The notes under the pieces are model-generated. The model saw only the letters and a list, made by a program, of their open reading frames with translations, did no database searches and had not been told where the DNA came from. This document shows, one piece after another, positions 4,034 through 50,873 of a stretch of DNA of 64,000 nucleotides. Source of the DNA: an uncultured bacterium (GTDB lineage: Bacteria; Verrucomicrobiota; Kiritimatiellia; CAIKKV01; CAITUY01); NCBI GenBank assembly GCA_903908715.1, contig CAIVSY010000111.1:58655-122654 (forward strand), given 5' to 3'. A program made the translations under genes and the position numbers. The first letter of the stretch is position 1; every line of letters starts with the position of its first letter.

Positions 4034-4118
4034 ATCTTGCCTCCTGACAGATGTGGCACCTTAGCAAATGTTCAAAGGTTTCGCCATAGGCGCCTTTTCA
4101 TGCTAGTTTGAACGGGTT

Positions 4119-7406: not shown

Positions 7407-7525
7407 GGCTGTTCTCCTCTTGTTACTACAGGTTTTCCCAATCGGTCCGGCATCCTAGCACAATCCGCCGGATCCGTCACCTGCCGCGCCTCTGAATCCC
7501 GCACGAAGCAGCCCCCACTCCCGCT

Positions 7526-7554
7526 TTGACATCCCCCATAACCTCGCCTATTGT
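7526..7554 (+). promoter_or_regulatory. Candidate sigma-70 promoter for gspE (TTGACA, 17-nt spacer, TATTGT)
   Basis: Perfect -35 hexamer, 17-nt spacer and a 4/6 -10 hexamer, about 22 nt upstream of the gspE ATG. In the divergent tpx/gspE intergenic region. Confidence 0.4.
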
Positions 7555-7575
7555 ATTGGGCTGGAATACACGATT

Positions 7576-9282
7576 ATGACCACGGCACTGCCAACCAGTT
7601 TGACCGGCTTGCTGACCCGGACCGGCCTGCTTTCGGAATCCCAGATCGCCTCGGTCCTCCAGCATGCCCAGCAGACCGAGCTGTCCATCACCCGGGCGGT
7701 TACCACTCTGGGGTTTGCCGGCGAGGACGCCTTCCTGGAGGCGCTGGCCATGGCCCTGCATCTCCCCTTTGTCCGGCTCGGATCGCAGAACATCGAGGCC
7801 GATGTGCTCGCCAAGCTCCCGACCCGTGCCGTCTTCCAGTACAACGTGATCCCCTATGCGATCGAGAACGGCGCCCTGCGCGTCGCCACGAACGACCCCT
7901 TCGATGCCGGCCTCGTGGATGCCCTCCGGCTGGCATCCGGGATGCGCGTCCGCCTCGCCCTGGCGATGGAGAACGAGATCGCCGCCGCCATCAAGAAGTT
8001 CTACGGCGTCGGCGCCGACACGGTCGAAAAACTGATGCAGGACGGCGACCGGATCGAAGTCGCCCCGGAGGAAACCCTCGGCAAGACGGACCTGAGCGAA
8101 CTCGACCAGGAAGCCTCCATCGTCCGGTTTGTGAACCAGATCATCTGGGAGGCTTACCAGGAACGCTCCACGGATATCCATCTGGAGCCAATGGAGAACC
8201 AGCTCCGGATCCGGTACCGCGTGGACGGCGTCCTGCACCAGACCCCGCTCCCTCCCCAGCTGACCCGCTTCCAGGCCGCCATCATCTCACGTATCAAGGT
8301 CATGGCCAACATGGATATCGCCGAGAAACGCCTTCCCCAGGACGGGCGCATCGGCATGCGGATCCAGGGCGAGGATATCGACATCCGCGTCTCGACCATG
8401 CCTACCGTCTACGGCGAAAGCGTCAGCCTCCGCCTCCTCATGCGCGGCAAGGAGTTCATCGGGTTCAAGGAACTGGGTATGCGCCCGCGCGACGAAGCCA
8501 TCCTCCGGAAACTGATTGAAAAGCCGAACGGCATCATCCTCGTCACAGGCCCGACCGGCTCGGGCAAGTCCACCTCACTCTATGCCTACCTGCACGAAAT
8601 CAACACGATCGACCAGCGGATCATCACCGTCGAGGATCCGATCGAATACGAGATGGCAGGCATCAACCAGATCAGCGTCCGCTCGGAAATCGGATTGACC
8701 TTTGCCACCGCCCTGCGCCATATCCTGCGCCAGGACCCGGATATCATCATGATCGGTGAAATCCGCGACTTTGAGACCGCGGAAATCGCCATCCGCGCCT
8801 CGCTGACCGGGCATTTGGTCTTCAGCACGCTCCATACCAACGACGCGGCCGGAGCGGTGACCCGCCTCCTCGACATGGGCGTGGAACCCTTCCTGGTCGC
8901 GTCATCCCTGGAAGCGGTCGTCGCCCAGCGCCTCATCCGGCGCCTGTGCCCCTTCTGCAAGCGGCCGGCCAAGCCGGATGTCCCGTTCCTCTCCACCATC
9001 GGCTTCCCGGTCGACCGCCTTTCCAACACCCCCATCCTGGAGGCGGTCGGATGCGAGAAGTGCCGCATGACCGGGTTCAAGGGCCGCACAGGCCTCTATG
9101 AAGTCCTCCAGGTCACCGAGGAAATCGAACCTCTGATCCTCCAGCGTTCCTCCTCCCACGCGATCAAGTTGAAGGGTACCAGCCAGGGCATGATCACCCT
9201 CCGGGAAGACGGCTGGATGAAAGTCCTGGAAGGCGTTACCACGATCGAGGAAGTCCTGCGCGTATCGGAGGAAACGGATTGA
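7576..9282 (+). CDS. gspE: Type II secretion system ATPase GspE
   Basis: 568 aa. N-terminal T2SS-E N1 domain, Walker A GPTGSGKST, Asp/His boxes and a tetracysteine CPFC…CEKC motif. Confidence 0.9.
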   Translation: MTTALPTSLTGLLTRTGLLSESQIASVLQHAQQTELSITRAVTTLGFAGEDAFLEALAMALHLPFVRLGSQNIEADVLAKLPTRAVFQYNVIPYAIENGALRVATNDPFDAGLVDALRLASGMRVRLALAMENEIAAAIKKFYGVGADTVEKLMQDGDRIEVAPEETLGKTDLSELDQEASIVRFVNQIIWEAYQERSTDIHLEPMENQLRIRYRVDGVLHQTPLPPQLTRFQAAIISRIKVMANMDIAEKRLPQDGRIGMRIQGEDIDIRVSTMPTVYGESVSLRLLMRGKEFIGFKELGMRPRDEAILRKLIEKPNGIILVTGPTGSGKSTSLYAYLHEINTIDQRIITVEDPIEYEMAGINQISVRSEIGLTFATALRHILRQDPDIIMIGEIRDFETAEIAIRASLTGHLVFSTLHTNDAAGAVTRLLDMGVEPFLVASSLEAVVAQRLIRRLCPFCKRPAKPDVPFLSTIGFPVDRLSNTPILEAVGCEKCRMTGFKGRTGLYEVLQVTEEIEPLILQRSSSHAIKLKGTSQGMITLREDGWMKVLEGVTTIEEVLRVSEETD

Positions 9283-10514
9283 TCTTCTCCTATAAAGCCA
9301 AGGAAAAGTCCGGACAAACGGTGACCGGATCCCTCGAGGCCAACGACCGGATCAGCGCCCTGAAACAACTCTCGAAACTGGGACTGACCCCCATCTCGAT
9401 CGCCGCCTCCGAGTCCGGCACCGCCACTCCCGCCACTCCCGTCGCACAATTCAGGCTCACCCTGCGCCGCAAACCGCGCATGCGCACCGGCGAAGTCCTG
9501 AATTTCTCAACCGAACTCAGCGACCTGCTCGCCTCGGGCATGACCCTCGGCCATGCCCTCACGACGCTGAGCAAACGCAGGACCGGCGGCCCCGCCGATG
9601 ACATCATCCGGGACCTGCGAGACCAGATCGTGCAGGGTACCAACCTCTCCGACGCCATGGCTCGCCATCCGGACAGCTTCGGATCCCTGTATGTCAGCAT
9701 GGTGCGCGTCGGCGAAGCCAGCGGCGCCCTATCGGAAATCATGCTGCGCCTCGTGGAACACTACGAGCGCCTCCAGGACCTGAAGGAGAAGGTCATCATG
9801 GCCCTGGTCTACCCGGCGATCGTCCTCGGCATGGGCTTCGTTACGATGATCTTCTCCATGGTCTATGTTATCCCGAAGTTCTCCGCCATCTTCGAGGAAC
9901 TCGGCAGCACCCTGCCGCTGCCAACCCGTATGCTGATTGCCATGAGCGGATTCCTCCTGCGCTACGGGTGGCTGCTCCTCGGCCTCGTGGTCGCCGTCGG
10001 CGTCCTGCTCTCTCGCGCGCTGAAAACACCGGCCGGCCGCCTGCGATGGCACCGCGCCCAGCTGCGAATCCCGTTCCTGCGCAGCATCATCGCCTCCAGC
10101 ACCTATGCCAATTTCGCACGGACCCTCAGCACCCTGCTGACCAATGGCGTCCCCGCCCTGCAGGCGCTGGGTATCGTGGAACAGACCATCGGCAACGTCA
10201 TCATCGCCGGCGAAATCCGCAAGGCAAGGGACCGCGTCACCGATGGAACCACCATCTCGGGCCCGCTGGCCGCCGGCGGCGTCTTCCCGCCCCTGATGAC
10301 GGATATGCTGGCGATCGGCGAACAAACCGGCGATATGCCGGGCGCCCTGAAGCATATCGCGCATCGCTACGAAACCGAGCTGAGCCGGAATGTGAAACTC
10401 TTCACCACCGCACTGGAGCCCATTCTCATCGTCCTGGTCGCCGTTCTCGTGGGTTTCATTGCCGTCAGCATCGTGATGGCAGTGTTCAACGTCACAAACG
10501 GCCTTGGAGTCTGA
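9279..10514 (+). CDS. gspF: Type II secretion system inner-membrane platform protein GspF
   Basis: 411 aa. TTG start overlapping the gspE TGA (TTGA). Conserved GspF/PilC N-terminus (F-Y-KAK…G…G) and two GspF repeats with three TM segments. Confidence 0.85.
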   Translation: MIFSYKAKEKSGQTVTGSLEANDRISALKQLSKLGLTPISIAASESGTATPATPVAQFRLTLRRKPRMRTGEVLNFSTELSDLLASGMTLGHALTTLSKRRTGGPADDIIRDLRDQIVQGTNLSDAMARHPDSFGSLYVSMVRVGEASGALSEIMLRLVEHYERLQDLKEKVIMALVYPAIVLGMGFVTMIFSMVYVIPKFSAIFEELGSTLPLPTRMLIAMSGFLLRYGWLLLGLVVAVGVLLSRALKTPAGRLRWHRAQLRIPFLRSIIASSTYANFARTLSTLLTNGVPALQALGIVEQTIGNVIIAGEIRKARDRVTDGTTISGPLAAGGVFPPLMTDMLAIGEQTGDMPGALKHIAHRYETELSRNVKLFTTALEPILIVLVAVLVGFIAVSIVMAVFNVTNGLGV

Positions 10515-10529
10515 CGCCGAACCAGCGCC

Positions 10530-11381
10530 ATGAAATACGGGGCTCACATCTTCCTCTGGACCGAATGCTGGAACAACCGCGAACTCGGCCTGCTGGCCCG
10601 GGCGCGCCGGCTGGGGCTGGACACCCTCGAGATCGCCGTCGGAGACGATGTGGAGTTCGACAGCCGCGCCATCCGCAGGGAAGCGGAACAGCAGGGAATG
10701 GAGATCGTGACCAGCCCCGGCGGCCACTGGCCGATGCAGGCGGATGTCTCGCACCCGGATCCGTCCTGCAGGGACAATGCCCTGCAATGGCACAGGCAGT
10801 GGATCGAAAAAAGCGCCGAAGCCGGCGCCACAGCCTACACCGGCGCACTCTATTCGCACCCGGGCCACATCGAACGACGGAAACCCGATCCCGGGGAATT
10901 CCACCGTTCGGCCGGAAACCTGCACGCCCTTGCGGAATATGGACGGGAATGCGGCATCGCCATTGTCCTGGAACCGATGAGCCATTTCCGGGTCAGCCTC
11001 GTCAATACACCGGATCAGGTCATGCGCCTCATCGAAGCCGCCGACCACCCGAACCTGAAGGTCCTCCTGGACACCTACCACATGGTCACCGAAATCCGGG
11101 ATTTCCCGGCCGCCATACACAAGATGGCACCGCACCTCTGGGGCCTTCATGCCTGCGAGAATGACCGCGGCTGCCCGGGTGGCGGACTCATCCCGTGGCC
11201 GGCCATTACGCAAGCCCTCAAGGCTACCGGTTTCCACGGACACATCCTGATGGAAACCTATAACTCATCTCTCCGCAACGGCGAATTCGCCTGTTCCCGG
11301 GGGATGTTCCATAATGTCTGCCCCGATGGGGACGCTTTCGCCAAGTCAGGCATTGCCTTCCTGCGCGGCCTGATTGAGTAG
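10530..11381 (+). CDS. Sugar phosphate isomerase/epimerase (xylose isomerase-like TIM barrel)
   Basis: 283 aa. AP-endonuclease-2/xylose-isomerase-like TIM-barrel pattern (LGLDTLEI, VLEPMS, metal-ligand H/E/D spacing). Only 15 nt downstream of gspF. Confidence 0.65.
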   Translation: MKYGAHIFLWTECWNNRELGLLARARRLGLDTLEIAVGDDVEFDSRAIRREAEQQGMEIVTSPGGHWPMQADVSHPDPSCRDNALQWHRQWIEKSAEAGATAYTGALYSHPGHIERRKPDPGEFHRSAGNLHALAEYGRECGIAIVLEPMSHFRVSLVNTPDQVMRLIEAADHPNLKVLLDTYHMVTEIRDFPAAIHKMAPHLWGLHACENDRGCPGGGLIPWPAITQALKATGFHGHILMETYNSSLRNGEFACSRGMFHNVCPDGDAFAKSGIAFLRGLIE

Positions 11382-11545
11382 AAATTCCACTGCCATCCAG
11401 AAACGGCAAAATCTTTTCCCCGAATCTTGACTTTTTCCATCAATTTCTTCAACCTGCACCTCTTGAACCACTTCCGGCGAATGGAAAAGGAGAACATCTT
11501 CTGGAGAAATACCATTGCCGACAATGGCTCTTTCTGGATTCTAGA

Positions 11546-13543
11546 ATGAAGACAACAACCCTGATTCGAAAGCAAAAAATGGCAAAGAAAACCCGTGTAT
11601 CGAGCGTCAAAGGAAAACCAGATTTTTCAGCCAAGGCAAAGAAACTGCTCAACGGACGGCTGTTGAGTATCGGCATCCCCCAGGGGCAGGCCGTCCGCTT
11701 TTACCCCAAGGAATACGAGAAGATCCTTGCCTTTGCCGCAAAGTACGGAGCCACCGGTGTCGGCATCAGCATCCCGTACGAATACACATGGTTCCTTCCG
11801 GACAATACGGACCCGTATGCCTGCTGGTGCAACAATTTCACCCTGTTCCGCATCTTCCCGCCGAAAGCCCTTCAGCGCTGGATCCCGGTGAAGGAATCCC
11901 GGCGCCTGCAGGGACTGCTGCGCACCCAGCTCCAGATCGCCCGCAAGTACGGAATCACCCGGGCCTCCACCGGCGGCGCTGAACCGCTCTGGCTGCCGGA
12001 AGGGGTTTACGAGGCGCATCCGAACTGGCGCGGGGCCCAGCTCGAACTCGGCCGTATCGCCAAACGCCCCTATTTCGCGCCGGCAATCGATGATCCCGAA
12101 GTGCTGCAGCTCTACCATGACGCCATGCATGAACTGTCCACGAAATTCCCGGAGATTGAACATTTCGAGTGGCTGGCCAACGACTCCGGCAGCGGCATTC
12201 CCTGGGCGTCCAACCTCTACCCGGGCATGAATGGTCCGATCCGCCACCGCCACAATGACGGCGGCGCACGGCTGACCAACTGGCTCAAGGCCATGCAGGA
12301 TGGCTCGGCCAAGGCCGGCGCGAAGGTCCGGATCCATTGCTGGTTCCACGGAATGACCCCGGAATTCCATGCGTCCGCTGTTTCGAAACTGCGTTCCGGC
12401 CTCTTCGTGCGCTGGACCGGAGTGCCCGGCGAAAATATCGGCGGACCGGGAGCCGGATTCCCCGGCGGCATCTGGAGCACCTGTTATCCCGTGGTGGGCC
12501 TCGGTCACGGCGCCAGTTTCATCGGCGGCCTGCAGTCGATCTACAACAACCCGAACGGGGACAATGCACGTTGCGGCCTGGGCGTGGACATCCACCACCT
12601 GCCGCTGGCCCAACTGCTGATCGATACGTTCCTCGAAAACCCGGGCACAGGCATGATGCACCGCCTGGCAACCTCCCTCAAGGCGGCCAAGCGGATCACA
12701 GGCTCGGACAGCGGCGCCGAAACACTCCTGTCTGTCTGGGATGGCGTTTCGACTGCCGAAACCATCCTCCAGAAGGTGCAGCAAAAGGGATTCGGTCTGA
12801 TCATGCCCTTCTGCGGCGTCAGTATGCGCTGGTTCACCCGTCCGCTGGTTCCCCAGCCGGAGAAGCTGACGGTTGCGGAAAAGGCGCACTACCGCAAGCA
12901 CCTCCTGACCGTCGATTCGGAAGAGGACCTGGCCGACTACTGCCGCATCCTCGGGAAGCCGGTGTTCCACGGAGAAGGCGCCATGTGGATGGCTCGCTGG
13001 TCGCTGAATGATGTCGCCAACCGCTTCGGCGGCCTGGCCGGCACCGTGCAATCCCTTGCCAAGAATGCCCCGGATGCCGAATGGGCCGAGTGGCTTTCGC
13101 TCTACAGCCTGCGTCTGGCCGCCGCCGGATGCCTGGCCCGCACGGCCCGCAACGTCATCATGTACCAGTACGCGCTGGACACCGCGCGCCAGCCCCAGTT
13201 CGGACCAAACCCGATGGACTACGACGACAACATCATGTACGACCAGCGCGCGATCGTTATGCGCAAGATCGCCCGCGAAGAGGCCGACAACGTGATGGAA
13301 CTCATCGGCATCCTCGAGGAGGCCAGGGGACGCGGCATGATCCTTGACCAGGCTACGAAACCGGAAGAGGAAAGCGTGTTCCTCCTCGGCCCGAACCTGA
13401 TCGGCGACCTGAAGAAGAAACTGAAAATCATGATGGCGCACTGGCAGGAATACGAGACTCTCTATCCGGCCACCAAGGTCTACGACTTCGAGCCGGATCC
13501 GAAGGGCAATATCCTCCCGCCGCCCGCGCCGGCAGGCAAATAG
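11546..13543 (+). CDS. Hypothetical protein (665 aa, no recognisable family)
   Basis: Long ORF with natural (non-shadow) composition and a Lys-rich N-terminus without signal peptide. Preceded by a 164-nt lower-GC intergenic region. The antisense 604-aa ORF is a compositional shadow. Confidence 0.5.
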   Translation: MKTTTLIRKQKMAKKTRVSSVKGKPDFSAKAKKLLNGRLLSIGIPQGQAVRFYPKEYEKILAFAAKYGATGVGISIPYEYTWFLPDNTDPYACWCNNFTLFRIFPPKALQRWIPVKESRRLQGLLRTQLQIARKYGITRASTGGAEPLWLPEGVYEAHPNWRGAQLELGRIAKRPYFAPAIDDPEVLQLYHDAMHELSTKFPEIEHFEWLANDSGSGIPWASNLYPGMNGPIRHRHNDGGARLTNWLKAMQDGSAKAGAKVRIHCWFHGMTPEFHASAVSKLRSGLFVRWTGVPGENIGGPGAGFPGGIWSTCYPVVGLGHGASFIGGLQSIYNNPNGDNARCGLGVDIHHLPLAQLLIDTFLENPGTGMMHRLATSLKAAKRITGSDSGAETLLSVWDGVSTAETILQKVQQKGFGLIMPFCGVSMRWFTRPLVPQPEKLTVAEKAHYRKHLLTVDSEEDLADYCRILGKPVFHGEGAMWMARWSLNDVANRFGGLAGTVQSLAKNAPDAEWAEWLSLYSLRLAAAGCLARTARNVIMYQYALDTARQPQFGPNPMDYDDNIMYDQRAIVMRKIAREEADNVMELIGILEEARGRGMILDQATKPEEESVFLLGPNLIGDLKKKLKIMMAHWQEYETLYPATKVYDFEPDPKGNILPPPAPAGK

Positions 13544-13575
13544 TCGCGGCCTTCCCGTGCTGGAAAGAAGTCCAC

Positions 13576-13618
13576 GCCGGGAGATTCATGGGCAATCATG
13601 CGTCTCCCGGCTTTTTTT
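13576..13618 (+). terminator. Rho-independent terminator after the 665-aa ORF
   Basis: GCCGGGAGA…TCTCCCGGC, a 9-bp perfect stem followed by TTTTTTT. Confidence 0.6.
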
Positions 13619-13650
13619 GCCTGCCTTTGGCCTCCGGTCCGCTCTAGACT

Positions 13651-15177
13651 TTGATCACGGGAATACCGTATCCTCGCGGAATCATGACCGCGACAGTCCA
13701 GGACTTCGGACCCGAATTCACCGATTATCTGCGCGATGAATCCCGGCGCACAGGTCGTGCCGCGGCCATTGCCCTGCCAAGGAATGAAGACGAGGTGCGG
13801 CACGCCCTCCAGGTAGCCCGCCAGCGGGGTTGGACCGTCACGCCACAGGGCGCCCGTACCGGCATCGCCGCAGGCGCGGTACCGGAAGGCGGACTGATCC
13901 TCAACCTGAGCCACATGAACCACATGGGTCCGGTGCAACCGGGCGAGCGTATCACCGTGGAACCCGGTGTCGTGCTCTCCGAATTGCAGACGGCACTCGC
14001 CGGCCGAAATCTCTTCTTCCCGCCGGATCCCACCGAACGTTCAGCCTCCATTGGGGGCATGCTTTCGTGCAACGCTTCCGGCGCGCTCTCGTATCATTAT
14101 GGCCCGACCCGCAACTGGGTCCGGTCGGCCCGGATCATGCTGGCGGATGGCGATACCCTCCATCTTGAGCGGGGAATGAAAGCCAGGGCCCGCCATGTGG
14201 ACTTGGTTACCGGCGCCGGCCGGCGGATCCGAACGGAACTCCCGCTCCTGGACATGCCATCCGTGAAAAGTGCCGCCGGCTACCACGTGCGACCGGACAT
14301 GGATCTCCTCGACCTCTTCATCGGCATGGAAGGCACACTCGGCATCATTACCGCCGCCGAGCTCCAACTTCTGCCGCAACCGCATTGCCGGAACGCCCTG
14401 ACCGCCTTTTTCCCGAATGAGCCCGCGGCTCTTCAGTGCGTCCATTTTCTGCGCGGCGAAACCGGGATCCGGCTCCCGTCCCCTCCCGCCGCCATCGAGT
14501 TCTTCGACGCCCACGCCCTGAACCTGCTCCGGCAGGCCAAGGCTGGGAATCCCGCCTTCGCCAAACTGCCGGCGTTGGACAGCCGTTTCCATACCGCCCT
14601 GTACGTGGAATTCCACAGCGAGGATCCCGCGCCCGTCGAGGAATCGATCCTGCTGACCGCGGAACACCTGCAGACCGCAGGTGTCGGCGAGAACGACACC
14701 TGGTTCGCCGGCAGCGCCCGTGAAATCGAGACCATGAAGGACTTCCGCCATGCCACCCCTGAAGCGGTCAACCTGCTGATCGACCAGCGCAGGAAACAAC
14801 ACCCCACCCTGACCAAGCTGGGCACCGATATGTCGGTTCCCGATCCTGCGCTGGAAAGAGTCATGGCCCTCTACCATCAGGGCCTCGCCGGCGCGGGACT
14901 CGAATACGTCATCTTCGGTCACATCGGAAACAACCACGTGCACGTGAACATCCTGCCCCGCGATATGGATGACTTCCAGCGCGGCAAGGCCCTTTACCAG
15001 GAATGGGCCCGCGCCGTCGTGGCCCTGGGAGGTTCCGTCTCCGCCGAACACGGCATCGGGAAAATCAAGACGCCTCTCCTCCTCCAGATGTTCGGCGAAA
15101 GCGGCATCGCCGCCATGAAACACATCAAGCAGGTTTTCGATCCGGAAGGCCGCATGAACCCCGGCACCCTGTTCTAG
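13651..15177 (+). CDS. FAD-linked oxidase (GlcD/D-lactate dehydrogenase family)
   Basis: About 500 aa. FAD-binding PCMH domain (GARTG…GG) and a C-terminal FAD-oxidase domain (HIGNNHVHVNI, GGSVSAEHGIG). The true start may be ATG 13684. Confidence 0.75.
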   Translation: MITGIPYPRGIMTATVQDFGPEFTDYLRDESRRTGRAAAIALPRNEDEVRHALQVARQRGWTVTPQGARTGIAAGAVPEGGLILNLSHMNHMGPVQPGERITVEPGVVLSELQTALAGRNLFFPPDPTERSASIGGMLSCNASGALSYHYGPTRNWVRSARIMLADGDTLHLERGMKARARHVDLVTGAGRRIRTELPLLDMPSVKSAAGYHVRPDMDLLDLFIGMEGTLGIITAAELQLLPQPHCRNALTAFFPNEPAALQCVHFLRGETGIRLPSPPAAIEFFDAHALNLLRQAKAGNPAFAKLPALDSRFHTALYVEFHSEDPAPVEESILLTAEHLQTAGVGENDTWFAGSAREIETMKDFRHATPEAVNLLIDQRRKQHPTLTKLGTDMSVPDPALERVMALYHQGLAGAGLEYVIFGHIGNNHVHVNILPRDMDDFQRGKALYQEWARAVVALGGSVSAEHGIGKIKTPLLLQMFGESGIAAMKHIKQVFDPEGRMNPGTLF

Positions 15178-15270
15178 GAGCCCCCCATCGGAGACGTCAA
15201 AGAGGTCTTCCGCCGTCACAGCCGCTCTGCATGGAATAGCTGTTGTGACACCCCCCTCAAAATGATATAA

Positions 15271-15290
15271 CGAATTCGTAACGAATGACA
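15271..15290 (+). promoter_or_regulatory. 10-bp palindrome ACGAATTCGT plus AACGAAT direct repeat upstream of gspG
   Basis: Perfect palindrome immediately followed by a repeat of AACGAAT, about 20 nt upstream of the gspG start. Candidate operator. Confidence 0.3.
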
Positions 15291-15305
15291 ACCTATGGAG
15301 AACGT

Positions 15306-15728
15306 ATGAACAAGATCCAGCGAATCCTTCTCCTTGAACCCGCATCGGAAAACCGCAAGGCCGGCTTCACCCTCGTGGAAATCCTGCTTGTGGTCGCCAT
15401 ACTCGGGATTCTCTCGGGCGTGGCGGTCATCAGCCTGAAGGGCCGCACGAAATCAGCCAGCATTTCGGCCACCCGAACAAGCATCAAGGCAATCCAGACC
15501 GCCATCGACACCTACGAGGTCGACAACGGCGCCTATCCCGCCTCTCTGCAGGGCCTGCTGACCAAGACCAGCGAAAACAACTGGAACGGCCCCTACCTCA
15601 AGGATGGCCGCACCCCGAAGGATGCATGGGGCACCGAATTCGGCTACAGCCTGAAGGGCGACTCCTACGAAATCCGGTCGGCAGGACCCGACACCCAGAT
15701 GGGTTCGTCCGATGACATCACCAACTGA
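15306..15728 (+). CDS. gspG: Type II secretion major pseudopilin GspG
   Basis: Start set to the internal ATG (MNKIQ). Prepilin leader plus GFTLVEILLVVAILGIL N-methylation/cleavage motif, and a GspG core (NNWNGPYL). Confidence 0.85.
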   Translation: MNKIQRILLLEPASENRKAGFTLVEILLVVAILGILSGVAVISLKGRTKSASISATRTSIKAIQTAIDTYEVDNGAYPASLQGLLTKTSENNWNGPYLKDGRTPKDAWGTEFGYSLKGDSYEIRSAGPDTQMGSSDDITN

Positions 15729-16308
15729 CGGCCGCGCGAGGCGCCTCCCCGCCCGCTTCGCCTTTACCCTCGTGGAGGTCCTGCTGGTGCTGGCCATCCT
15801 CGGCATCACCACCGTCGTGACCATGCCGTACCTTGTCAAGTCCATCCGCGGCAATCGCCTGCGCGTAGCCGCCAACAGCGTCGTACGCGCAGGACGCTAC
15901 GCCCGGAGCATGGCCATTCTGGGAAATCGCGAAATGGTCCTCTCGTTCGACACCGCTAAAGCGACCCTTCAGGTGGCTCCCTACCGTTCCCCGCAGGCCG
16001 CACAGCCGGATGCACGGGCAACCTCACCGCAACCCCCCACACCCTCCACTGATCCCGTATCTCCCCAGGACGGCGCCTCGTCCGCCGCCCCCCCCATCAC
16101 CATTACGCGCGAACTCGACGGAGTACGGATCGAATCCGTACAGATTGCAAACCGCTCCGGCGCCTCCGGCGGAATCGTGGCAGTCCTCTACCGCAGCAAC
16201 GGCCGCTGCACGCCTTATGAGGTCAGACTCGTGGATGAGCGCGACGCCGCCATACGGATCACCGTCGATGCGCTCTCCTCCGCCTCCGCCACAAGGGAGG
16301 ATCGCTGA
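15712..16308 (+). CDS. gspH: Minor pseudopilin, GspH-like
   Basis: Prepilin-type N-terminus FAFTLVEVLLVLAILGI. 198 aa. Overlaps gspG by 17 nt. Confidence 0.6.
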   Translation: MTSPTDGRARRLPARFAFTLVEVLLVLAILGITTVVTMPYLVKSIRGNRLRVAANSVVRAGRYARSMAILGNREMVLSFDTAKATLQVAPYRSPQAAQPDARATSPQPPTPSTDPVSPQDGASSAAPPITITRELDGVRIESVQIANRSGASGGIVAVLYRSNGRCTPYEVRLVDERDAAIRITVDALSSASATREDR

Positions 16309-16311
16309 ACC

Positions 16312-16737
16312 ATGAGATCCGCCAGGCACGACAGGAACCGCACGGGACTGACCCTCGTGGAAGTCCTGATGGCCCTGGCCATCCTGGGCATCTCCGCCGC
16401 GGTCCTGATGACGGCCACTTCCCGCTGCCTGAGCGTGGTTCGTGTCGCCAACAACTACTATGAGGCCCGCCGCATCCTGGAACTGGCCGAGATCGAATAT
16501 CCTGTCCTCGTCTTCAAGGAGGACTCAGGACCCGCAGCCAAGGAAAAAATCCTGAATTCAAACGTCGGCCCCATCGAATATCCCGGAGGACTGGTTTTCA
16601 ACCGCGCCTGCACCCGTTCGGAAAACAACCAGGACCTGGTCGAGGTGAAAACCCGCGTCACCTGGTCGGCACGCGGCCGGTCAGGTTTCGAGGAAGTCTC
16701 CTCCTACCTCTATTTCACCAATGAAATCTCGTTGTAA
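16312..16737 (+). CDS. gspI: Minor pseudopilin, GspI-like
   Basis: GLTLVEVLMALAILGI prepilin motif. 141 aa. Confidence 0.6.
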   Translation: MRSARHDRNRTGLTLVEVLMALAILGISAAVLMTATSRCLSVVRVANNYYEARRILELAEIEYPVLVFKEDSGPAAKEKILNSNVGPIEYPGGLVFNRACTRSENNQDLVEVKTRVTWSARGRSGFEEVSSYLYFTNEISL

Positions 16738-17431
16738 CAACATCAGGCCAGGATCCGCGGCAGGCTTTACCCTGCTGGAACTCCTCGTCGGCATCGCCAT
16801 CTTCGTGCTGGTCGGATCGGTCACGTTCACCCTGATGGCGGCCGTGAGCAAGGCCTGGCAGCGCGGCACGGCCCTGTGCGAGAACCTCCATGCCGGCGAC
16901 TACGTCATGGACCAGATCGTGGATGGCCTGCTTGCCGCACGCTATCGCGACAACAACGACGGATTCCTGCTGGAGGACCGGGGGGACGGCAGCGGCGCAA
17001 TGGACTCCATCTCCTGGGTCAAGGAAGGCACCGCCCTCGTCGGCGAGGACTCCAAGATCGCCAGCACCTATCACCACATCCGCTTCTTTGTCGGGCGCGA
17101 CGAGGAAGGCACGTCCGGCGCCGCCTTCACAGTCTGGGGGGATGATTATCTCCAGCCCGACAACTTCGAACCCGAAGCCCTCCCGGCCGAGGTCCTCAGC
17201 GACCGCGTCGTCGGCTTTAACTGCCGCGTGGCCACCAACAATTTCGAAATGAACCGCCTCCAGTGGATGAACTCCTGGGACGAGGATATCGGCCAGGGGG
17301 ACAACATGACCAACCATATCCCGCGCTTTGTCGAGATCACGCTCTACCTGAAACCCCTGGCCGAAGGGGAACCGCCTGTCGAAATGCGACGCATGGCGGA
17401 CATCCCCGTGGCCAACAAGGGAATGAAATGA
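16721..17431 (+). CDS. gspJ: Minor pseudopilin, GspJ-like
   Basis: GFTLLELLVGIAIFVL prepilin motif. 236 aa. Overlaps gspI by 17 nt. Confidence 0.55.
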   Translation: MKSRCNNIRPGSAAGFTLLELLVGIAIFVLVGSVTFTLMAAVSKAWQRGTALCENLHAGDYVMDQIVDGLLAARYRDNNDGFLLEDRGDGSGAMDSISWVKEGTALVGEDSKIASTYHHIRFFVGRDEEGTSGAAFTVWGDDYLQPDNFEPEALPAEVLSDRVVGFNCRVATNNFEMNRLQWMNSWDEDIGQGDNMTNHIPRFVEITLYLKPLAEGEPPVEMRRMADIPVANKGMK

Positions 17432-18441
17432 AACGCAGCGGGTCAGCCCTCATCATCGTACTCTGGGTCATCGCCCTGCTGTCCGTCCTGATTGGCGGAT
17501 TCGCCTACGATATGCATCTGGAATCTCGCGTGGTTTCCTACCAGCGCAAGAAACTGAAGGCCATCTACCTGGCCAAAGGAGGAGTCGAACTCGCCCGCGC
17601 CCTGCTCGCCCGCAGCGCCCAGATCCAAGGCGCCACCGACCCCGACACCCTCAAGGCGGAACCCTGGTACCTGAACGCCAAACGCCTCCGCCAGGGGTAC
17701 GCCGTGGTCGGATTAACCGATTCACTCGGCGAAGGCACCATTATCGTGGATATCGCGCCCGAACCCGCCCTGCGCAATGTGAACACACTCAAGGACGACG
17801 ACTGGGAGCGCATCCTCGAGGTCGGCGGCGTACCGGAGGAAATGTGGAGCGAACTGGTCGACAGCTTCAACGACTGGCGCGACGCCGACGACCAGCCCAA
17901 CCTCGACGGCGCGGAAACCGATGACTACTACGCCCGCCTCGACCCCCCCTATAAGGCTCGCGGTCGCAAAGGCAAGTCCGCCTCCCTTGACACAGTCGAT
18001 GAACTTCTGCTCATCAAGGGTTTCTCCCGCACCATCCTCTACGGAGGCCCCCTGACCGAGGACGACACCAACAGCGTGGCCATTCCGGGCATCGCTGACC
18101 TGCTAACCGCGCTGAAGGATTCCGGCGAACAGGTCAATGTGAATGCCGCAGGCAAACGGGTTCTCATGACCCTGCCCGGCATTGACGATACCCTGGCCGA
18201 CGCCATTATCGACGCGCGGGAAGGGTTGACAGCCGGCACAAAAATGGGCGATGATTATTTTTTCAAGGATGCGAATGACTTTTTCGGGCGGATTCCCGAC
18301 CTGGGGGGAATCCCTCCGGACGATCAACAGCGGTTGAGATCCCTGGTGGGAACGGTGTCTTCCGTCTACCGTATCACCTCGATCGGTCGGGTTCATGGCG
18401 TGGAATACAAAATTGTTTCTGTGGTAACGGCTCAGCGATAA
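17428..18441 (+). CDS. gspK: Minor pseudopilin GspK
   Basis: ATG overlaps the gspJ stop (ATGA). GSALIIVLWVIALLSVL N-terminus. About 337 aa, typical GspK size. Confidence 0.65.
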   Translation: MKRSGSALIIVLWVIALLSVLIGGFAYDMHLESRVVSYQRKKLKAIYLAKGGVELARALLARSAQIQGATDPDTLKAEPWYLNAKRLRQGYAVVGLTDSLGEGTIIVDIAPEPALRNVNTLKDDDWERILEVGGVPEEMWSELVDSFNDWRDADDQPNLDGAETDDYYARLDPPYKARGRKGKSASLDTVDELLLIKGFSRTILYGGPLTEDDTNSVAIPGIADLLTALKDSGEQVNVNAAGKRVLMTLPGIDDTLADAIIDAREGLTAGTKMGDDYFFKDANDFFGRIPDLGGIPPDDQQRLRSLVGTVSSVYRITSIGRVHGVEYKIVSVVTAQR

Positions 18442-18446
18442 AACCT

Positions 18447-19841
18447 ATGACCGGGAAAACACACTCCAGCCTTGCCCTGACCGCCCGCTCGGCGGAATGG
18501 ATGGCCATTCCCAAGGCCGGCGAACCATCCACCCCGGGCCACGAAGTCGTTCTTCCCGCCGAATCCCCGCACCGGACCCTCATGGACGCCATAGCAGCCG
18601 ATCCGGATTCCATGGGTAAGGCCCTCCGGGAGAAGTGCGGCAGGCTTCCGAAACCCCTCACCACCGGAATTCCGGCATCCCATGTGCTCCTCCGCGTCCT
18701 GGACCTCCCCGAAGGCAGTCCCCAGGATCTTCGCGGCATGGTGGAACTGCAGGTCGACAAGCTCGCGCCATTCCCGGCTGACGAAGCCACCTTCTCCTAC
18801 GAGGTACTGGATACCGCCAACGGGCGCTGCCGCCTGTGGCTGGGCGCTATCCCAACGAAAACCGCGGAATCGCTGGGCTCCTGCCTCAGGGCAGCCGCCA
18901 TGCCGCCCCGGCGGATTGACATCAACCTCCTCGGATGGTGGCAACTCCTGCGCGACGCCGGGAAAACCGGGGATGGTAACGGCTCCCGGGCTTTCCTGAT
19001 CCTCGAAAACGAATCCTGCGACCTGGTTCTTGCCACAGCCGGAATCCCGGTCTCGGTCCGATCCCTCGACGGCCTCGAGGGTCTTTCGTCCGAGGAACTC
19101 GCCGAGGAAATCACCCGGGAATTCCTCTTTACCCTGACGTCTCTCGACCTCGACCGGACAGGGCAGCCGCTTACGGAAATCGCGGTCTGGCATCGCGGCA
19201 AGGCTCCGGATCTCACAATCCAGCGCCTGCACGAGCAAATCGGCGTGGCCGTGCATGCCTTCACCCTGGAGACCCTGCCCCCATTGGCTGAAGGCCTGAG
19301 CCGCAGGGCGATCGCCGGAACACCGCTGCTGGATCTGGCACCCGCCGCATGGCGCGAAGCCGAAGCCAGTCAACGTGCCAGGCGGCGGCTGGTCAGCGTC
19401 GGCGGGACCCTGCTGGGCCTCTGGGCCATCGCCATGGTGATCCTTTTCGGTGGTCTTCAGTATCACAAACAGCGCCTGGGACATCAGGAGACCCTGCTCG
19501 CCGGACTCGCTCCGGCCGCTGAAAACGCCCGTGCCGTGCGCGATCGGGTCAAAACCCTTGAACAGTATATCGAGCGGAAGCACTCGGCCTTGGAATGCCT
19601 GCGCGAAGTTTCCGACCTGCTCCCGCCGGGCATCGAGCTCAAGTCGTTCAACTACCGCAAGTCCAAGACCCTGGAATTGTCCGGCGAGGCTGACGCCGTC
19701 TCTCTCGTCTTCGACTTCAAGAAGGAGATGGAGAAGTCCGAGCTGTTTATCAAGACCGACCTGCCCCGCACCCAGCGGAACGCGCAGGGCAAGGAGGTAT
19801 TCAAGCTGATCGCCACACTGCCGGGAGGAGAGATACAATGA
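18447..19841 (+). CDS. gspL: GspL-like assembly protein (PilM-like cytoplasmic domain, TM segment, PilN-like periplasmic domain)
   Basis: 464 aa. One central TM segment (LLGLWAIAMVILFGGL) separates a cytoplasmic domain from a periplasmic domain. Position matches gspL in the operon order. Confidence 0.55.
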   Translation: MTGKTHSSLALTARSAEWMAIPKAGEPSTPGHEVVLPAESPHRTLMDAIAADPDSMGKALREKCGRLPKPLTTGIPASHVLLRVLDLPEGSPQDLRGMVELQVDKLAPFPADEATFSYEVLDTANGRCRLWLGAIPTKTAESLGSCLRAAAMPPRRIDINLLGWWQLLRDAGKTGDGNGSRAFLILENESCDLVLATAGIPVSVRSLDGLEGLSSEELAEEITREFLFTLTSLDLDRTGQPLTEIAVWHRGKAPDLTIQRLHEQIGVAVHAFTLETLPPLAEGLSRRAIAGTPLLDLAPAAWREAEASQRARRRLVSVGGTLLGLWAIAMVILFGGLQYHKQRLGHQETLLAGLAPAAENARAVRDRVKTLEQYIERKHSALECLREVSDLLPPGIELKSFNYRKSKTLELSGEADAVSLVFDFKKEMEKSELFIKTDLPRTQRNAQGKEVFKLIATLPGGEIQ

Positions 19842-20404
19842 AAATGTCCTCCCGGGAAATTCTTCTGGCCGGCATCACGGGCATGGTTGCCCTGTTCGGG
19901 GTCTCCTACCTCCTGGCTGTTCCGCGGATCAAGGACTGGAGTGTCCTGCGCGATAAGCGCGAGGAAGCGCAACGCCGCATCGACCTGACACAACGACTGA
20001 TCGAGCAGGCCCCCGCTTGGGACGTCAAGCTCAAGGAGCTACGGCGCAGGCTCCCGCAATATGCACCGGAAAAGGACGTCACGGCCGACCTGATGATCCG
20101 GATCGAAAAAATGGCTTCCGCCAGCGGACTGACCCTCGCAAGCCGTGACCTGGAAAAGGAAACGCGCTCCGCCGAAATGTACGAACTGGCTGCCAACTGC
20201 AAGTGGGAAGGCAAGCTGGAGCCCTTGGTCCAATTCCTCTTTGCACTCCAGCAGGAGGATGCTATCCTCGACGTCAGCCAACTTACGGTGGCACCAAACG
20301 AAAAGCGGATCCTGAAAGGAAGTTTCACCGTTTATTGCTCGTATTCCCGGGCCAAAGCCGGCGGATCCACCGATAAAAACGAACCCAAGGGCCAGCAACC
20401 ATGA
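19838..20404 (+). CDS. gspM: GspM/PilO-like inner-membrane protein
   Basis: 188 aa. N-terminal TM segment followed by a periplasmic domain. ATGA overlaps with both gspL and gspD. Confidence 0.5.
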   Translation: MKMSSREILLAGITGMVALFGVSYLLAVPRIKDWSVLRDKREEAQRRIDLTQRLIEQAPAWDVKLKELRRRLPQYAPEKDVTADLMIRIEKMASASGLTLASRDLEKETRSAEMYELAANCKWEGKLEPLVQFLFALQQEDAILDVSQLTVAPNEKRILKGSFTVYCSYSRAKAGGSTDKNEPKGQQP

Positions 20405-22776
20405 AATCCCCGATCCTGCGTACCTTCGGATGCATCGTAGCCATCCTGGCGGCCGGCCTCGGCGCCCCGCTCCCGGCCCAGATGCCGCCTGCAACGGCCA
20501 CTCCATCTGCGCCTCCCACCCCACCGGCGATCCCGGGCCTGACCCGCCCCGCACCAACCGTGAATCCTCAAACCGCCCCTTCAACCACCAAGACCGTCGC
20601 CCTGAAATTCAACGCCGCCCCCATGGAGCAGGTCCTGCAATTCTACAGCGAACTGACAGGCCGCACCATTCTCCCCGCGCCGGGAATCAATGCAACCGTC
20701 ACCCTGCGCAGCCAATCCGACCTGACCATCGCCGAAGCCATCCAGGCCATCAAGACCGTTCTCGCCATGAACAATGTCGGACTGGTCGACACCGGCCCCA
20801 AGTTCGTCAAGGTCGTCCCCATCGGCTCCGTCCAGCAGGAAGGCCTGCCGATACAGAGCAACATCTGGCAGGAAGTCCGCCACGAGGAAAATGACCAGTT
20901 GTTGAGCGAGATCATCCCGCTGAAATACATCGACCCCGCAGAGGCACAGAAAGCGATCAGCGGGCTGATCCATTCCTATGGCAAGATCCTGCCGCTGGAA
21001 CGAATCAACAGCCTGCTGATCGCCGACAGCTCCATCAATATCAACCGTATCAAGGACGTCCTCATCCAGATCGACCAACCCCTGGAACTGAAGGAAAAAC
21101 TGCATATCATGACCATCCGGCATGCGAAGGCGTCGGATATCAAGGCCCGCATGGAGGAAATCCTGGCCGACCAGAAGGAGAAGGAAAAACAAACTTCCGG
21201 CCGCCGCCTTAAGGAAACCGGATCCCCGGGCGTGGAAACCGCTACGCCGCCCACCATTCCAGGCGTCATCCGTGCACGGCCTGCCGCCACCACCCCGACC
21301 TCCACCACCGAACCGGCCGCAGTCGACGAAGGCGAGATGATCCGCGGCACGGTCAAGCTGATTGCCGACGACCGGACCGGTATGCTGATCATCATCACCC
21401 GCCCGGAAAATATGCTTTTCTTTGAACAGATCGTCACGGCCCTCGATGTACCCACCGCGCCGGATGTCAGCGTGCAGGTCATCCGCCTCGAATATGCCGA
21501 CGCCGAAAGCGTCGCGAGCATGCTGAACGCCCTGATCGGAGCGGCCTCATCCACGAAGGACAGCCAACCCGCTAAAGGCGCCACCAGCGGCACCGCCGCC
21601 TCTGCCGGGAAGACAGGAGAGTCCACCGAGCCCGCGCGCAGCAGCCAGCTCCAGGAGTTTATCGAACAGCAGCGCACGCTGGCCACCCGCTCCACCAGGG
21701 CCGGGGAAGCCAAGTCAAAGATCGGCCAGCTCTCGGCCGAAAATATCCGCATCCTGGCCGATGAACGGACAAACGCTCTCATCATCATGGCCAGCAAGGG
21801 TGATATGGCCTCCATCCTCGACCTGCTGAAGGATATGGACATCATGTTGTCCCAGGTGCTGATCGAGGCGGTCATCCTCCAGGTCGCACTGGACAAGACC
21901 CTGGAGCGCGGCGTGGACTGGGTCCAGCGCTCCATGGTGGCCTACGACACGGACAACGGCGGCCGCGATCCGCTCTTCGCCTTCGCGGGCGCAGGGGGCG
22001 GCGGAACCCTTTCGCCCAAGGATGCCTTGAGCCTCTCCTCCACCTTCTCCGCAGGTGGCGGCTTAACTTACTACTTCACACATTTCGGATTGAACATGGA
22101 TGCCGTCATAAAGCTCACCCAGACGGACTCCCGCGGAAAAGTTCTTTCCTCCCCGATCATCCTCACGACCGACAACAAGGAAGCCATCATCAAGATCACG
22201 GAAAACCGATACTTCTACAAGGGCGTGCGCTACGTGGGTTATTCGGGAACGGAGCAGCAACTGGCCCCCGATGTGGAATCCAAGGACATCGGGCTGACCT
22301 TGACCGTCAAACCGCGCATCAACGCGAAGAAGTTCGTCAGCATGGAGATCAAGCAGGAGATCCAGAATATCTCCGGCGAACAGGCAATCGAGGGGCAGGG
22401 CAACTGGCCGATCGTTGCCTCCCGCGAAATGACGGCCGCCATCTCCGTCCGCAGCGGCGAAACCATCGTGCTCGGCGGCCTTGTGGAGAAATCCGAGAAC
22501 AACAGCGGAATCCGCATTCCCCTCCTGGGTAGCATCCCGATCCTGGGCATCCCCTTCCGCTCCACCACCGATAAGGACCTGCGCCGCGAAATCGTCGTGT
22601 TTATCACACCCACTGTCCTGGATAACCCCGAGGAAATCGAGGCCGAATCCGCCCGCCGCAAGAGCGCCACCACAATGAACGGGGAGGGTATGTGGGAAAA
22701 CCGATGGTCGAACAGTAAACTGGCGGAGCCGCCCCGCGGTCGCGTGGGCCAGTGGTGGCGCAACCTCTTGAAATAG
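20401..22776 (+). CDS. gspD: Type II secretion outer-membrane secretin GspD
   Basis: 791 aa. Signal peptide, N0/N1 domains, a Thr/Pro/Ala-rich linker and a C-terminal secretin domain (VLSSPIILTTDNKEAII…IPILGIP). Confidence 0.9.
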   Translation: MKSPILRTFGCIVAILAAGLGAPLPAQMPPATATPSAPPTPPAIPGLTRPAPTVNPQTAPSTTKTVALKFNAAPMEQVLQFYSELTGRTILPAPGINATVTLRSQSDLTIAEAIQAIKTVLAMNNVGLVDTGPKFVKVVPIGSVQQEGLPIQSNIWQEVRHEENDQLLSEIIPLKYIDPAEAQKAISGLIHSYGKILPLERINSLLIADSSININRIKDVLIQIDQPLELKEKLHIMTIRHAKASDIKARMEEILADQKEKEKQTSGRRLKETGSPGVETATPPTIPGVIRARPAATTPTSTTEPAAVDEGEMIRGTVKLIADDRTGMLIIITRPENMLFFEQIVTALDVPTAPDVSVQVIRLEYADAESVASMLNALIGAASSTKDSQPAKGATSGTAASAGKTGESTEPARSSQLQEFIEQQRTLATRSTRAGEAKSKIGQLSAENIRILADERTNALIIMASKGDMASILDLLKDMDIMLSQVLIEAVILQVALDKTLERGVDWVQRSMVAYDTDNGGRDPLFAFAGAGGGGTLSPKDALSLSSTFSAGGGLTYYFTHFGLNMDAVIKLTQTDSRGKVLSSPIILTTDNKEAIIKITENRYFYKGVRYVGYSGTEQQLAPDVESKDIGLTLTVKPRINAKKFVSMEIKQEIQNISGEQAIEGQGNWPIVASREMTAAISVRSGETIVLGGLVEKSENNSGIRIPLLGSIPILGIPFRSTTDKDLRREIVVFITPTVLDNPEEIEAESARRKSATTMNGEGMWENRWSNSKLAEPPRGRVGQWWRNLLK

Positions 22777-22792
22777 CCGGAAAGGAAGAATC

Positions 22793-23446
22793 ATGAAGAA
22801 ATCATTTACCGTTACCGCCGCGTTGGCTCTTGCAATGCTGGCCGGTTCAGGATGCAGTTCGTTGCGCATCGTGCAGGGTCAGGCCGCACCGCCCAACTGG
22901 GTCGCCAACCCCTCCGCCCTGCCGGACGCTGATACCAATGCCTTCGTGTTCGCCAGCGGAATCAGCACCTACAACATGGTTCTCGAGGAGGGCATCAACG
23001 ATGCCCGGCATGATGCCATCCGGAAAATCGCCGAACGCGTCAGCGTAACCGCCGACGACATCTACCGGACAGACCGGAATGACAAGCTTTCGAATACCCA
23101 TACCGATATGCCGAATACCCCTCAGACGTTCTTCAACTCGCACAAGGCGGTCAGCACCGGCAGCAAGGTGGAAACAAAGAAAACCCGCAACCCGCAGGCA
23201 AACCATGTATCCCAGACCCGCCTGCACGGCATGGATGAGTTCAAGCTGTCGTACACGGTCTGGCAATACGGCCCAAGCCTCTGGGCAAAAATGATCTATG
23301 GCGATACCGCCGTCCGCTTCTACGATGTATACGTCCTGATGCGGTGCCCAAAGACAGAATTCACAAGGGCTCTGCGTCTTGAATCGGAGCAGGAAGGCAT
23401 CCTGCCCGCCGGCGAGGTCAGCCCAACCGAAGGGACCCGCCAGTAA
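22793..23446 (+). CDS. Lipoprotein (candidate secretin pilotin/accessory)
   Basis: 217 aa. Lipobox LAGSGC after the signal peptide. Lies 16 nt downstream of gspD. Confidence 0.5.
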   Translation: MKKSFTVTAALALAMLAGSGCSSLRIVQGQAAPPNWVANPSALPDADTNAFVFASGISTYNMVLEEGINDARHDAIRKIAERVSVTADDIYRTDRNDKLSNTHTDMPNTPQTFFNSHKAVSTGSKVETKKTRNPQANHVSQTRLHGMDEFKLSYTVWQYGPSLWAKMIYGDTAVRFYDVYVLMRCPKTEFTRALRLESEQEGILPAGEVSPTEGTRQ

Positions 23447-23948: not shown

Positions 23949-23966
23949 ACAGGAAGGAATACTCCC

Positions 23967-27107: not shown

Positions 27108-27108
27108 C

Positions 27109-47135: not shown

Positions 47136-47172
47136 GCAGAGTTCATAAAATGAACCGCAAAGATGCACCCTC

Positions 47173-49640: not shown

Positions 49641-49668
49641 AAGCACTGCAATCAAGGGGACATCCTCA

Positions 49669-50835: not shown

Positions 50836-50873
50836 GAAGAGTCTAGAAGGAATCCAGAAGAGAAAGACAGACA

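Follow-up and report, generated by a model that had tools for sequence, protein, structure and literature searches.

A 64,000-nt stretch of the metagenomic contig CAIVSY010000111.1 (GenBank assembly GCA_903908715.1), called the window below, contains a type II secretion system (T2SS) gene cluster in which three metabolic genes stand between gspF and gspG (Table 1). The gspE-gspF pair lies upstream of this insert, and gspG-H-I-J-K-L-M-D, a lipoprotein gene and the ribosomal protein genes rplM-rpsI lie downstream. Genes were called from a listing of open reading frames (ORFs), an analysis of G+C content at third codon positions (GC3) in each frame, and profile searches. For comparison, the window proteins were mapped by tblastn onto one genome per GTDB species, which gave 80 related loci. 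Ten core T2SS genes were recognised by profile matches. The distance from the gspF stop to the gspG start is 4791 nt, with three non-T2SS genes between, in agreement with the split of about 4.8 kb claimed by a first-pass annotation of this DNA. The locus is quite likely the intact and complete T2SS, of the type found in the PVC (Planctomycetes, Verrucomicrobia, Chlamydiae) group, of an uncultured freshwater Kiritimatiellia-like bacterium; it is probably functional, its secretion activity being predicted from the sequence.

Table 1. Features of the T2SS locus and its surroundings, and of the gspF/gspG junction in related loci. Positions are those of the window, except in rows that name another locus; a slash within a motif marks the cleavage site; aa, amino acids.
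Feature	Position	Strand	Size	Evidence or content
gspE, assembly ATPase	7576-9282	+	568 aa	PF00437 464.6 bits; PF05157 62.9 bits (MshEN-type N-domain)
gspF, inner-membrane platform	9279-10514	+	411 aa	PF00482, two copies
Inserted block, three metabolic genes and spacers	10515-15210	+	~4.7 kb	synteny; flanks aligned to F-G spacers of relatives
Ketose-3-epimerase-like/xylose-isomerase-like TIM barrel (AP_endonuc_2)	10530-11381	+	283 aa	PF01261 124.6 bits
Uncharacterised cytoplasmic protein	11546-13543	+	665 aa (654 aa if start 11579)	no family model; predicted fold
GlcD-like FAD-linked 2-hydroxyacid oxidase/dehydrogenase	13684-15177	+	497 aa	PF01565 (FAD_binding_4), PF02913 (FAD-oxidase_C)
Retained ancestral gspF-gspG spacer, now gspG leader	15211-15305	+		aligned with spacers of L006, L011, L012, L031
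gspG, major pseudopilin	15306-15728	+	140 aa	PF08334, PF07963; TIGR01710 91.3 bits (cut-off 88.85)
gspH-like minor pseudopilin	15712-16308	+	198 aa	PF12019 25.2 bits (cut-off 21); PF07963
gspI-like minor pseudopilin	16312-16737	+	141 aa	PF07963; TIGR01707 weak best match
gspJ-like minor pseudopilin	16721-17431	+	236 aa	PF07963; TIGR01711 weak best match
gspK, minor pseudopilin	17428-18441	+	337 aa	PF21687 47.6 bits (cut-off 26.2); PF03934; NF037980 94.8 bits (below cut-off 130)
GspL equivalent	18447-19841	+	464 aa	PF05137 (PilN), PF11104 (PilM_2); TIGR01175
gspM, PilO-like	19838-20404	+	188 aa	PF10741 25 bits (cut-off 21.7); PF04350; NF040576 55.1 bits (below cut-off 60)
gspD, secretin	20401-22776	+	791 aa	PF00263, PF03958 (three copies), PF21305; TIGR02517 386.8 bits (cut-off 351.35)
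Clade-specific LPP20-fold lipoprotein	22793-23446	+	217 aa	lipobox LAGSG/C, Cys21
rplM-rpsI, downstream neighbours	23520-24365	+		PF00572, PF00380; synteny common to many related loci
S8 subtilase	39151-44184		1677 aa	MAM-like region, long C-terminal extension
Arabinofuranosidase-like protein	47910-49640		576 aa	clear signal-like N-terminus; weak arabinofuranosidase-type matches
L024, gspF/gspG junction	3950-8440 (L024)		4.5 kb	MmeI-type restriction-modification enzyme and AbiEii-like gene
L026, gspF/gspG junction	6960-10690 (L026)		3.7 kb	secreted 3-keto-disaccharide-hydrolase-like and glucuronyl-esterase-like proteins, rsmH
L035, gspF/gspG junction	11240-12690 (L035)		1.5 kb	DUF4143 AAA ATPase
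L009 and L090-L093 (93% GspF), after gspF	4530-8787 (L009)			topoisomerase, helix-turn-helix protein, VapBC, second T2SSF paralogue

GspG and GspD exceed the NCBIfam T2SS equivalog cut-offs, and the best matches of GspE, GspF, GspK and GspM are T2SS models, which upholds the earlier T2SS assignment. For GspE, which carries the tetracysteine motif CPFC...CEKC, the best NCBIfam match is TIGR02533 (612 bits, cut-off 630), and for GspF it is TIGR02120 (364.8 bits, cut-off 424). The GspI and GspJ calls rest on the N_methyl match, the weak TIGR01707 and TIGR01711 matches, gene order and size. The GspL equivalent has no match to the Pfam GspL models; it consists of a PilM-like cytoplasmic domain (E = 1.7e-5 against the PilM structure PDB 2ych), a transmembrane segment and a PilN-like periplasmic domain, the arrangement expected of a GspL. 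GspD combines a signal peptide and an N0 domain with three copies of Secretin_N and the secretin domain. The gene junctions are as first described: the TTG start of gspF overlaps the TGA stop of gspE (TTGA), the G/H and I/J overlaps are 17 nt each, and J/K, L/M and M/D are ATGA overlaps. The remaining gaps are short (H/I +3 nt, K/L +5 nt, D/lipoprotein +16 nt). The gspG start, previously placed at 15285, is corrected to 15306 by alignment with relatives, and the gspK start at 17428 agrees with the 337-aa called gene.

The class III signal peptides of the pseudopilins are intact, with cleavage sites G/FTLVE in GspG, A/FTLVE in GspH, G/LTLVE in GspI and G/FTLLE in GspJ. GspK is without Glu5, as GspK proteins generally are. 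The sites are conserved in the clade: the G/F site of GspG is found in 59 of 59 relatives, and GspH has A/F in 28 loci and G/F in 26. The pseudopilin calls thus pass PilD-site analysis.

The first-pass annotation had stressed the lack of gspC and of a prepilin peptidase. Among about 45 window ORFs, Pfam searches (weak matches up to E = 1 being considered for unannotated ORFs) found no Peptidase_A24, T2SSC, PDZ or PilP domain. None of the six reading frames of the window contains the prepilin-peptidase motif G.GD[VIAFLM]K, and there is no room inside the cluster for an extra gene such as gspC. A hidden PilD or GspC in the window was rejected on the Pfam scans of essentially all ORFs and this negative motif scan. 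Nor did Pfam and motif searches find a prepilin peptidase in the window and loci L001-L088 (n = 88), and gspC and gspO occur in none of about 60 related clusters or their flanks (10 kb on each side). The absence of both genes from the 64 kb therefore stands, but its oddity was overstated. Since neither gene occurs in any related cluster or flank, their absence is, on this comparison, ancestral and normal for the clade, and the window is not peculiar in this. Since the whole clade conserves the cleavage motifs and the clusters lack the gene, a prepilin peptidase must, by this reasoning, be encoded elsewhere in the genome and act in trans. This is an accepted T2SS layout, prepilin peptidase genes being routinely encoded apart and shared between systems; the detection models for type IV filaments (TFF) and T2SS treat the peptidase as a "loner", exchangeable with PilD (PMC6668835). 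GspC is mandatory in TFFscan, but the model works by a quorum of components (PMC6668835). The absence of GspC is a real difference from the canonical T2SS; by quorum of components the system is still a T2SS.

The interruption between gspF and gspG is a derived state. Among the 59 species loci having gspG downstream of gspF, the two genes are adjacent in 56, with a median gap of 84 nt, and large gaps are found in three only. The three inserted genes of the window occur in none of the 80 species loci. The series E-F-G-H-I-J-K-L-M-D-lipoprotein is contiguous in relatives with 85%, 76% and 73% GspF identity, contiguous clusters being seen in L006, L007 and L008. Thus the insertion is not the ancestral layout of all relatives and is, within this sampling, lineage-specific, as had been supposed. 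One further locus, L089 (92% GspF identity), is collinear with the window across gspE, gspF and the epimerase-like, 665-aa and oxidase genes at 81% nucleotide identity and shares its left junction. The insertion event is thus single and old, and its product has been stably retained.

The origin of the block as a mobile element or genomic island was rejected, since a recombinase, meaningful repeats, a tRNA and a composition anomaly are all lacking. No integrase or transposase is encoded by the three inserted genes, the direct or inverted repeats flanking the block are short and at chance level, and no tRNAs that could have provided an attachment site were found. The GC and GC3 values of the insert equal those of its flanks. 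A possible 10-nt duplication, CGCCGAACCA (10515) against CGCCGTCACA (15211), matches at 7 of 10 positions and is not relied on. In another locus, L003 (GCA_036681025.1, positions 5200-21971), a homologue of the 665-aa gene lies between orthologues of window positions 26544-29412 and 45618-47913. The ABC-transporter/DUF1854 pair of the window flanks it on one side and the genes of 45.6-47.9 kb on the other, in a sugar locus with AraC-, DeoC-, FGGY- and AraA-like genes. Given this copy between window orthologues, the 665-aa gene of the insert may have been relocated within the lineage, as a resident, and not imported as foreign DNA.

The predicted products of the block are cytoplasmic. The epimerase-like gene begins 15 nt past the gspF stop, and its match to the D-psicose 3-epimerase model NF051856 (149 bits) is below the cut-off of 300, as is that of the GlcD-like oxidase to TIGR00387 (208.9 bits, cut-off 567.9). 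The 665-aa protein has no Pfam or NCBIfam match. Its 91 homologues come from Kiritimatiellia, Lentisphaerae, Armatimonadota and Puniceicoccus. Its AlphaFold2 model (mean confidence score pLDDT 86) consists of a TIM barrel and a helical C-domain and resembles GH20 hexosaminidases in a Foldseek search (E = 7e-8, TM score about 0.4), the likeness to the glycoside hydrolase (GH) families GH20, GH84 and GH89 being at fold level only. This well-conserved 91-member family may represent an undescribed family of cytoplasmic glycosidases. A homologue with 65% identity lies among AraC, DeoC, FGGY-kinase and AraA-like genes, and one with 77% identity lies beside another AP_endonuc_2 gene, neither having T2SS genes there. 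With its homologues in such sugar-catabolism loci and its glycosidase-like fold, the protein was rejected as a T2SS accessory component. No signal peptide is found in any of the three inserted proteins. The epimerase-like, GlcD-like and glycosidase-fold genes, the lack of signal peptides and the homologues in sugar loci together justify the label "metabolic insertion".

One might suppose that the three genes have newly become functional partners of the secretion machinery, for instance in processing the products of secreted glycosidases, and not a neutral passenger. The epimerase-like gene is so close to gspF, whose stop it overlaps in L089, that co-transcription with gspEF is likely; the block is kept in two diverged lineages, and the insert at the same site in L026 encodes secreted proteins resembling carbohydrate-active enzymes. 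We nevertheless find such a partnership improbable, since the inserted proteins are all without a signal peptide, homologues of the inserted gene are found in sugar-catabolic loci that have no T2SS genes close by, 56 of the 59 related clusters lack the block, and other insertions at this site carry unrelated defence or toxin-antitoxin genes.

The right end of the block bears on how an insertion of this size could have been tolerated. The whole ancestral F-G spacer is on the right side of the insert, its first bases being those that in relatives come immediately after the gspF stop codon. This leader contains TTGTGA (15243-15248), a 17-nt gap, TATAAC (15266-15271) and a GGAG Shine-Dalgarno sequence (15297-15300). 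The corresponding spacers of L006, L011, L012 and L031 share a conserved TTGCAT-17/18-TAnnAT and a GGAG ribosome-binding site. Despite insertions of their own, L024 and L026 have TTGACG-17-TATAGT/TATTAT before gspG. Since the insert landed upstream of the ancestral gspG leader, the genes from gspG to the lipoprotein gene kept a promoter-like element and a ribosome-binding site, and they can probably still be transcribed on their own from this putative promoter. A generic terminator scan, which did no better than on shuffled sequence, detected no convincing terminator downstream of gspF or of the insert.

These observations suggest the following course of events. The ancestral layout would have been one contiguous E-F-G-H-I-J-K-L-M-D(-lipoprotein)-rplM-rpsI cluster. 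In an ancestor of the lineage, a block of about 4.7 kb with three cytoplasmic sugar/hydroxy-acid genes would have landed about 10 nt past the gspF stop. Its first gene, 15 nt behind gspF, would probably be read through from the gspEF transcript. As the insert landed just upstream of the putative gspG promoter, the machine would tolerate the split and be expressed as two units, a two-unit transcription predicted from the layout. The prepilin peptidase would be supplied in trans from elsewhere in the genome, and the linking role of GspC would be dispensable or taken over by another component.

Several points weigh against an intact and functional T2SS that is expressed in this way. GspE, GspF, GspK and GspM are below the NCBIfam equivalog cut-offs, although T2SS models are their best matches, and the L and M proteins are as similar to type IV pilus proteins (PilM/N/O) as to Gsp proteins. 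The search for a peptidase and a GspC analogue in the source genome covers the 64-kb window only, and the source DNA is a metagenome assembly. In the leader, a 17-nt indel disrupts the ancestral -35/-10 spacing in the window, the TTGTGA box being a proposed substitute. The promoter call is a sigma-70-like consensus in a phylum with little-studied promoters, and the generic scan did not list the site.

The cluster might instead encode a fibre machine of the type IVa pilus kind, serving adhesion, motility or uptake, and not a protein secretion system. GspE scores nearly as well with the PilB model (595 bits) as with the GspE model (612 bits), the L protein matches both PilM and PilN, and the M protein matches PilO. 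GspC, the T2SS-specific discriminator in TXSScan that is forbidden in the type IV pilus and Tad models (PMC4793230), is not present here. Little weight can be given to a pilus, however, because GspG and GspD pass the T2SS equivalog cut-offs while the PilQ score (210 bits) is below its cut-off of 284. At 140 aa the major subunit is a short pseudopilin, and it matches GspG and not PilA. The cluster has a GspK-type minor pseudopilin and a PilM-PilN fusion, and it lacks PilP. A search of the 64-kb window for a PilT/PilU retraction ATPase was negative, TIGR01420 being a weak secondary match of GspE. A compact single operon is typical of T2SS and not of type IVa pili (PMC4793230). Thus the cut-offs passed by GspG and GspD, the best matches of E, F, K and M, the short GspG-type subunit and the lack of PilT all favour a T2SS over a type IV pilus.

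We think it very unlikely that the insertion disabled the T2SS and left a decaying remnant. The operon is broken by 4.8 kb, the ancestral -35/-10 spacing is shifted by the 17-nt indel, and neither gspC nor gspO is near the cluster, but these two genes are also absent from every intact related cluster. None of the eleven genes is truncated or frameshifted, and the lengths in the window equal those in relatives (E 568/568, F 411/411, K 337/336-337, M 188/188, D 791/795). The pseudopilin cleavage motifs are intact, and the split layout has persisted across about 19% nucleotide divergence with GspF still 92% identical.

Near-identical or identical copies of the locus are seen in metagenome assemblies only, and the nearest species-level genomes are metagenome-assembled genomes (MAGs) labelled Kiritimatiellia, Verrucomicrobiota or PVC group, many of them from lakes. 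Different ENA samples yielded the left junction (gspF-epimerase) in at least five assemblies, and it occurs in the independent assemblies L001 and L002; the right junction (oxidase-gspG) is seen in the window and one 30-kb contig only. A chimeric contig produced by mis-assembly of a metagenome, at which the sparse recovery of the right junction might hint, is exceedingly improbable given the repeated left junction, also present in the diverged L089, the lack of a composition break at the insert and the genuine ancestral F-G spacer on its right flank.

The T2SS of the window can be compared with several known systems. With the canonical proteobacterial Gsp/Pul/Eps systems it shares E, F, G, H, I, J, K, M and D in the classic order, the prepilin-peptidase sites, the N0-N3 secretin domains and a compact, translationally coupled operon. 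It differs from them in having no GspC (homology region plus PDZ) and no GspO in the locus, a GspL of the PilM/PilN fusion type without a match to the Pfam GspL models, a clade-specific LPP20-fold lipoprotein after gspD in place of a PulS/AspS-type pilotin, and the interruption between F and G. The PilMNOPQ set of type IVa pili likewise combines PilM-, PilN- and PilO-like domains with a secretin, but here PilM and PilN are fused, the pseudopilins are of GspG/GspK type, and both PilT and a PilP lipoprotein with its homology-region beta-sandwich are missing. The system is of the little-studied PVC-group type, in which E-F-G-H-I-J-K-L-M-D lies beside rplM-rpsI in dozens of Kiritimatiellia, Lentisphaerota and Verrucomicrobiota MAGs. 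To this the window lineage adds the 4.7-kb metabolic insert, and the lineage and its close relatives add the lipoprotein gene. A T2SS has been annotated in the cultured Kiritimatiella glycovorans (PMC5148204), a member of the same phylum-level group; we found no experimental study of a PVC-group T2SS in the literature searched. In Legionella pneumophila the T2SS genes are scattered over five loci, so that, as here, they are not all adjacent and the peptidase is apart (PMC4793230); the window has a single break of three genes. This break is within the 5-gene co-localisation limit of TXSScan, by which the system would count as one locus (PMC4793230).

Independent insertions or rearrangements have placed unrelated DNA at the gspF/gspG junction in four other Kiritimatiellia-like lineages (Table 1), although the L009 and L090-L093 contigs end before any gspG is reached. 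Moreover, 13 species loci (L032, L050, L052, L053, L055, L056, L063, L070, L077, L078, L080, L086 and L088) have a gspEF pair with no class-III-signal-peptide ORF in the 2-10 kb available downstream of gspF. Their GspF identity is 54-65%, and their GspE identity reaches 77%. In these loci the EF module is separate from the G-D genes, or else the pairs are paralogous. The repeated insertions at the same site, together with the gspEF-only loci, suggest a structure of two modules, gspEF and gspG-D, with a permissive boundary between them. The genes found there are of defence, toxin-antitoxin, carbohydrate-active enzyme and metabolic types, and the module boundary may tolerate insertion.

The lipoprotein gene is clade-restricted. 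Where GspF identity is at least 73% it lies directly after gspD (12 of 12 loci), and 21 deeper loci lack it. In the deeper loci gspD abuts rplM, and the C-terminal tail of GspD, charged and of low complexity, is about 110-150 aa long and closes with a conserved "DLDP...FI...WD...VD" motif (L033, L038, L043, L047, L064). In the subclade of the window the GspD tail is short and the lipoprotein gene is in that position. The origin of the lipoprotein seems to coincide with the loss of a long charged C-terminal extension from the ancestral secretin.

Its family comprises 94 proteins, all at least 50% identical and with no Pfam assignment. A profile search of 1.84 billion representatives gave essentially this one cluster and about 10 weak matches; several of the weak, remote relatives carry Pfam LPP20. 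The window protein, a predicted outer-membrane lipoprotein, itself scores 16.5 bits with LPP20 (PF02169; threshold 25.9), and its predicted fold is LPP20-like with a disordered insert of about 50 residues. A sequence-profile search of PDB with the lipoprotein found nothing, and no sequence or fold likeness to the known pilotin families (PulS/OutS, AspS) was seen. Its candidacy as a PilP/GspC homology-region domain or a known pilotin was rejected, the predicted fold being neither the beta-sandwich nor PulS/AspS. With the LPP20 family, which includes Helicobacter pylori Lpp20 (HP1456) and relatives in flagellar outer-ring structures, the protein shares the lipobox and, through its remote relatives, the Pfam LPP20 match; it differs in its sub-threshold score, its disordered insert and its linkage to a secretin gene. 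The literature searched contained no description of an association between an LPP20-fold lipoprotein and a secretin gene. A putative secretin-associated role as pilotin or stabiliser is plausible. The protein may be a pilotin, a ring-stabiliser, or a stand-in for the missing GspC/PilP link. The broader proposal that it is an unrecognised secretin partner and that the gspF/gspG boundary has repeatedly captured cargo in the phylum is offered tentatively, as a possibility that we judge less probable than its negation.

The initial observation of a split T2SS is correct, and its significance is modest: it mostly reflects the ordinary plasticity of genomes, in a T2SS that is lineage-specific and otherwise typical, and current views are not overturned. 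Three aspects are noteworthy, namely how platform and secretin are coupled in a system that lacks GspC, what the lipoprotein does, and the recurrent insertions at the F/G junction. A conserved GspC-less T2SS beside rplM-rpsI across the group raises the question of how the inner-membrane platform couples to the secretin, for which the LPP20-fold lipoprotein is a concrete candidate partner. The cluster also behaves as two evolutionary modules, gspEF and gspG-D, whose junction accepts foreign DNA.

Bacteria of the PVC group, among them Kiritimatiellia and Lentisphaerota, are polysaccharide degraders and have to export many enzymes. The first-pass annotation had named an S8 peptidase and a GH of the window, both with signal peptides, as candidate cargos. 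Both genes exist (Table 1) and the signal of the GH is clear, but the N-terminus of the S8 subtilase (MLLLATALYSV...) is signal-like only, hydrophobic and without a typical charged n-region. An Rfam scan of the window gave no structured RNA matches. Upstream of gspE, a 570-aa ORF (5817-7529, + strand) was rejected on GC3 and called genes as a spurious Arg/Pro-rich frame; the real genes opposite it are DUF1638 and AhpC genes on the minus strand and an S51 peptidase gene on the plus strand. A 436-aa protein (4119-5429) without a Pfam match is conserved upstream, beside the S51 peptidase and DUF1638/AhpC genes. Farther downstream, positions 44524-56253 hold a dense run of GFO_IDH_MocA/GH109-like oxidoreductases, amidohydrolase_2, URO-D-like and Fe-ADH genes together with the secreted arabinofuranosidase-like protein, which looks like a sugar-utilisation island typical of the group.

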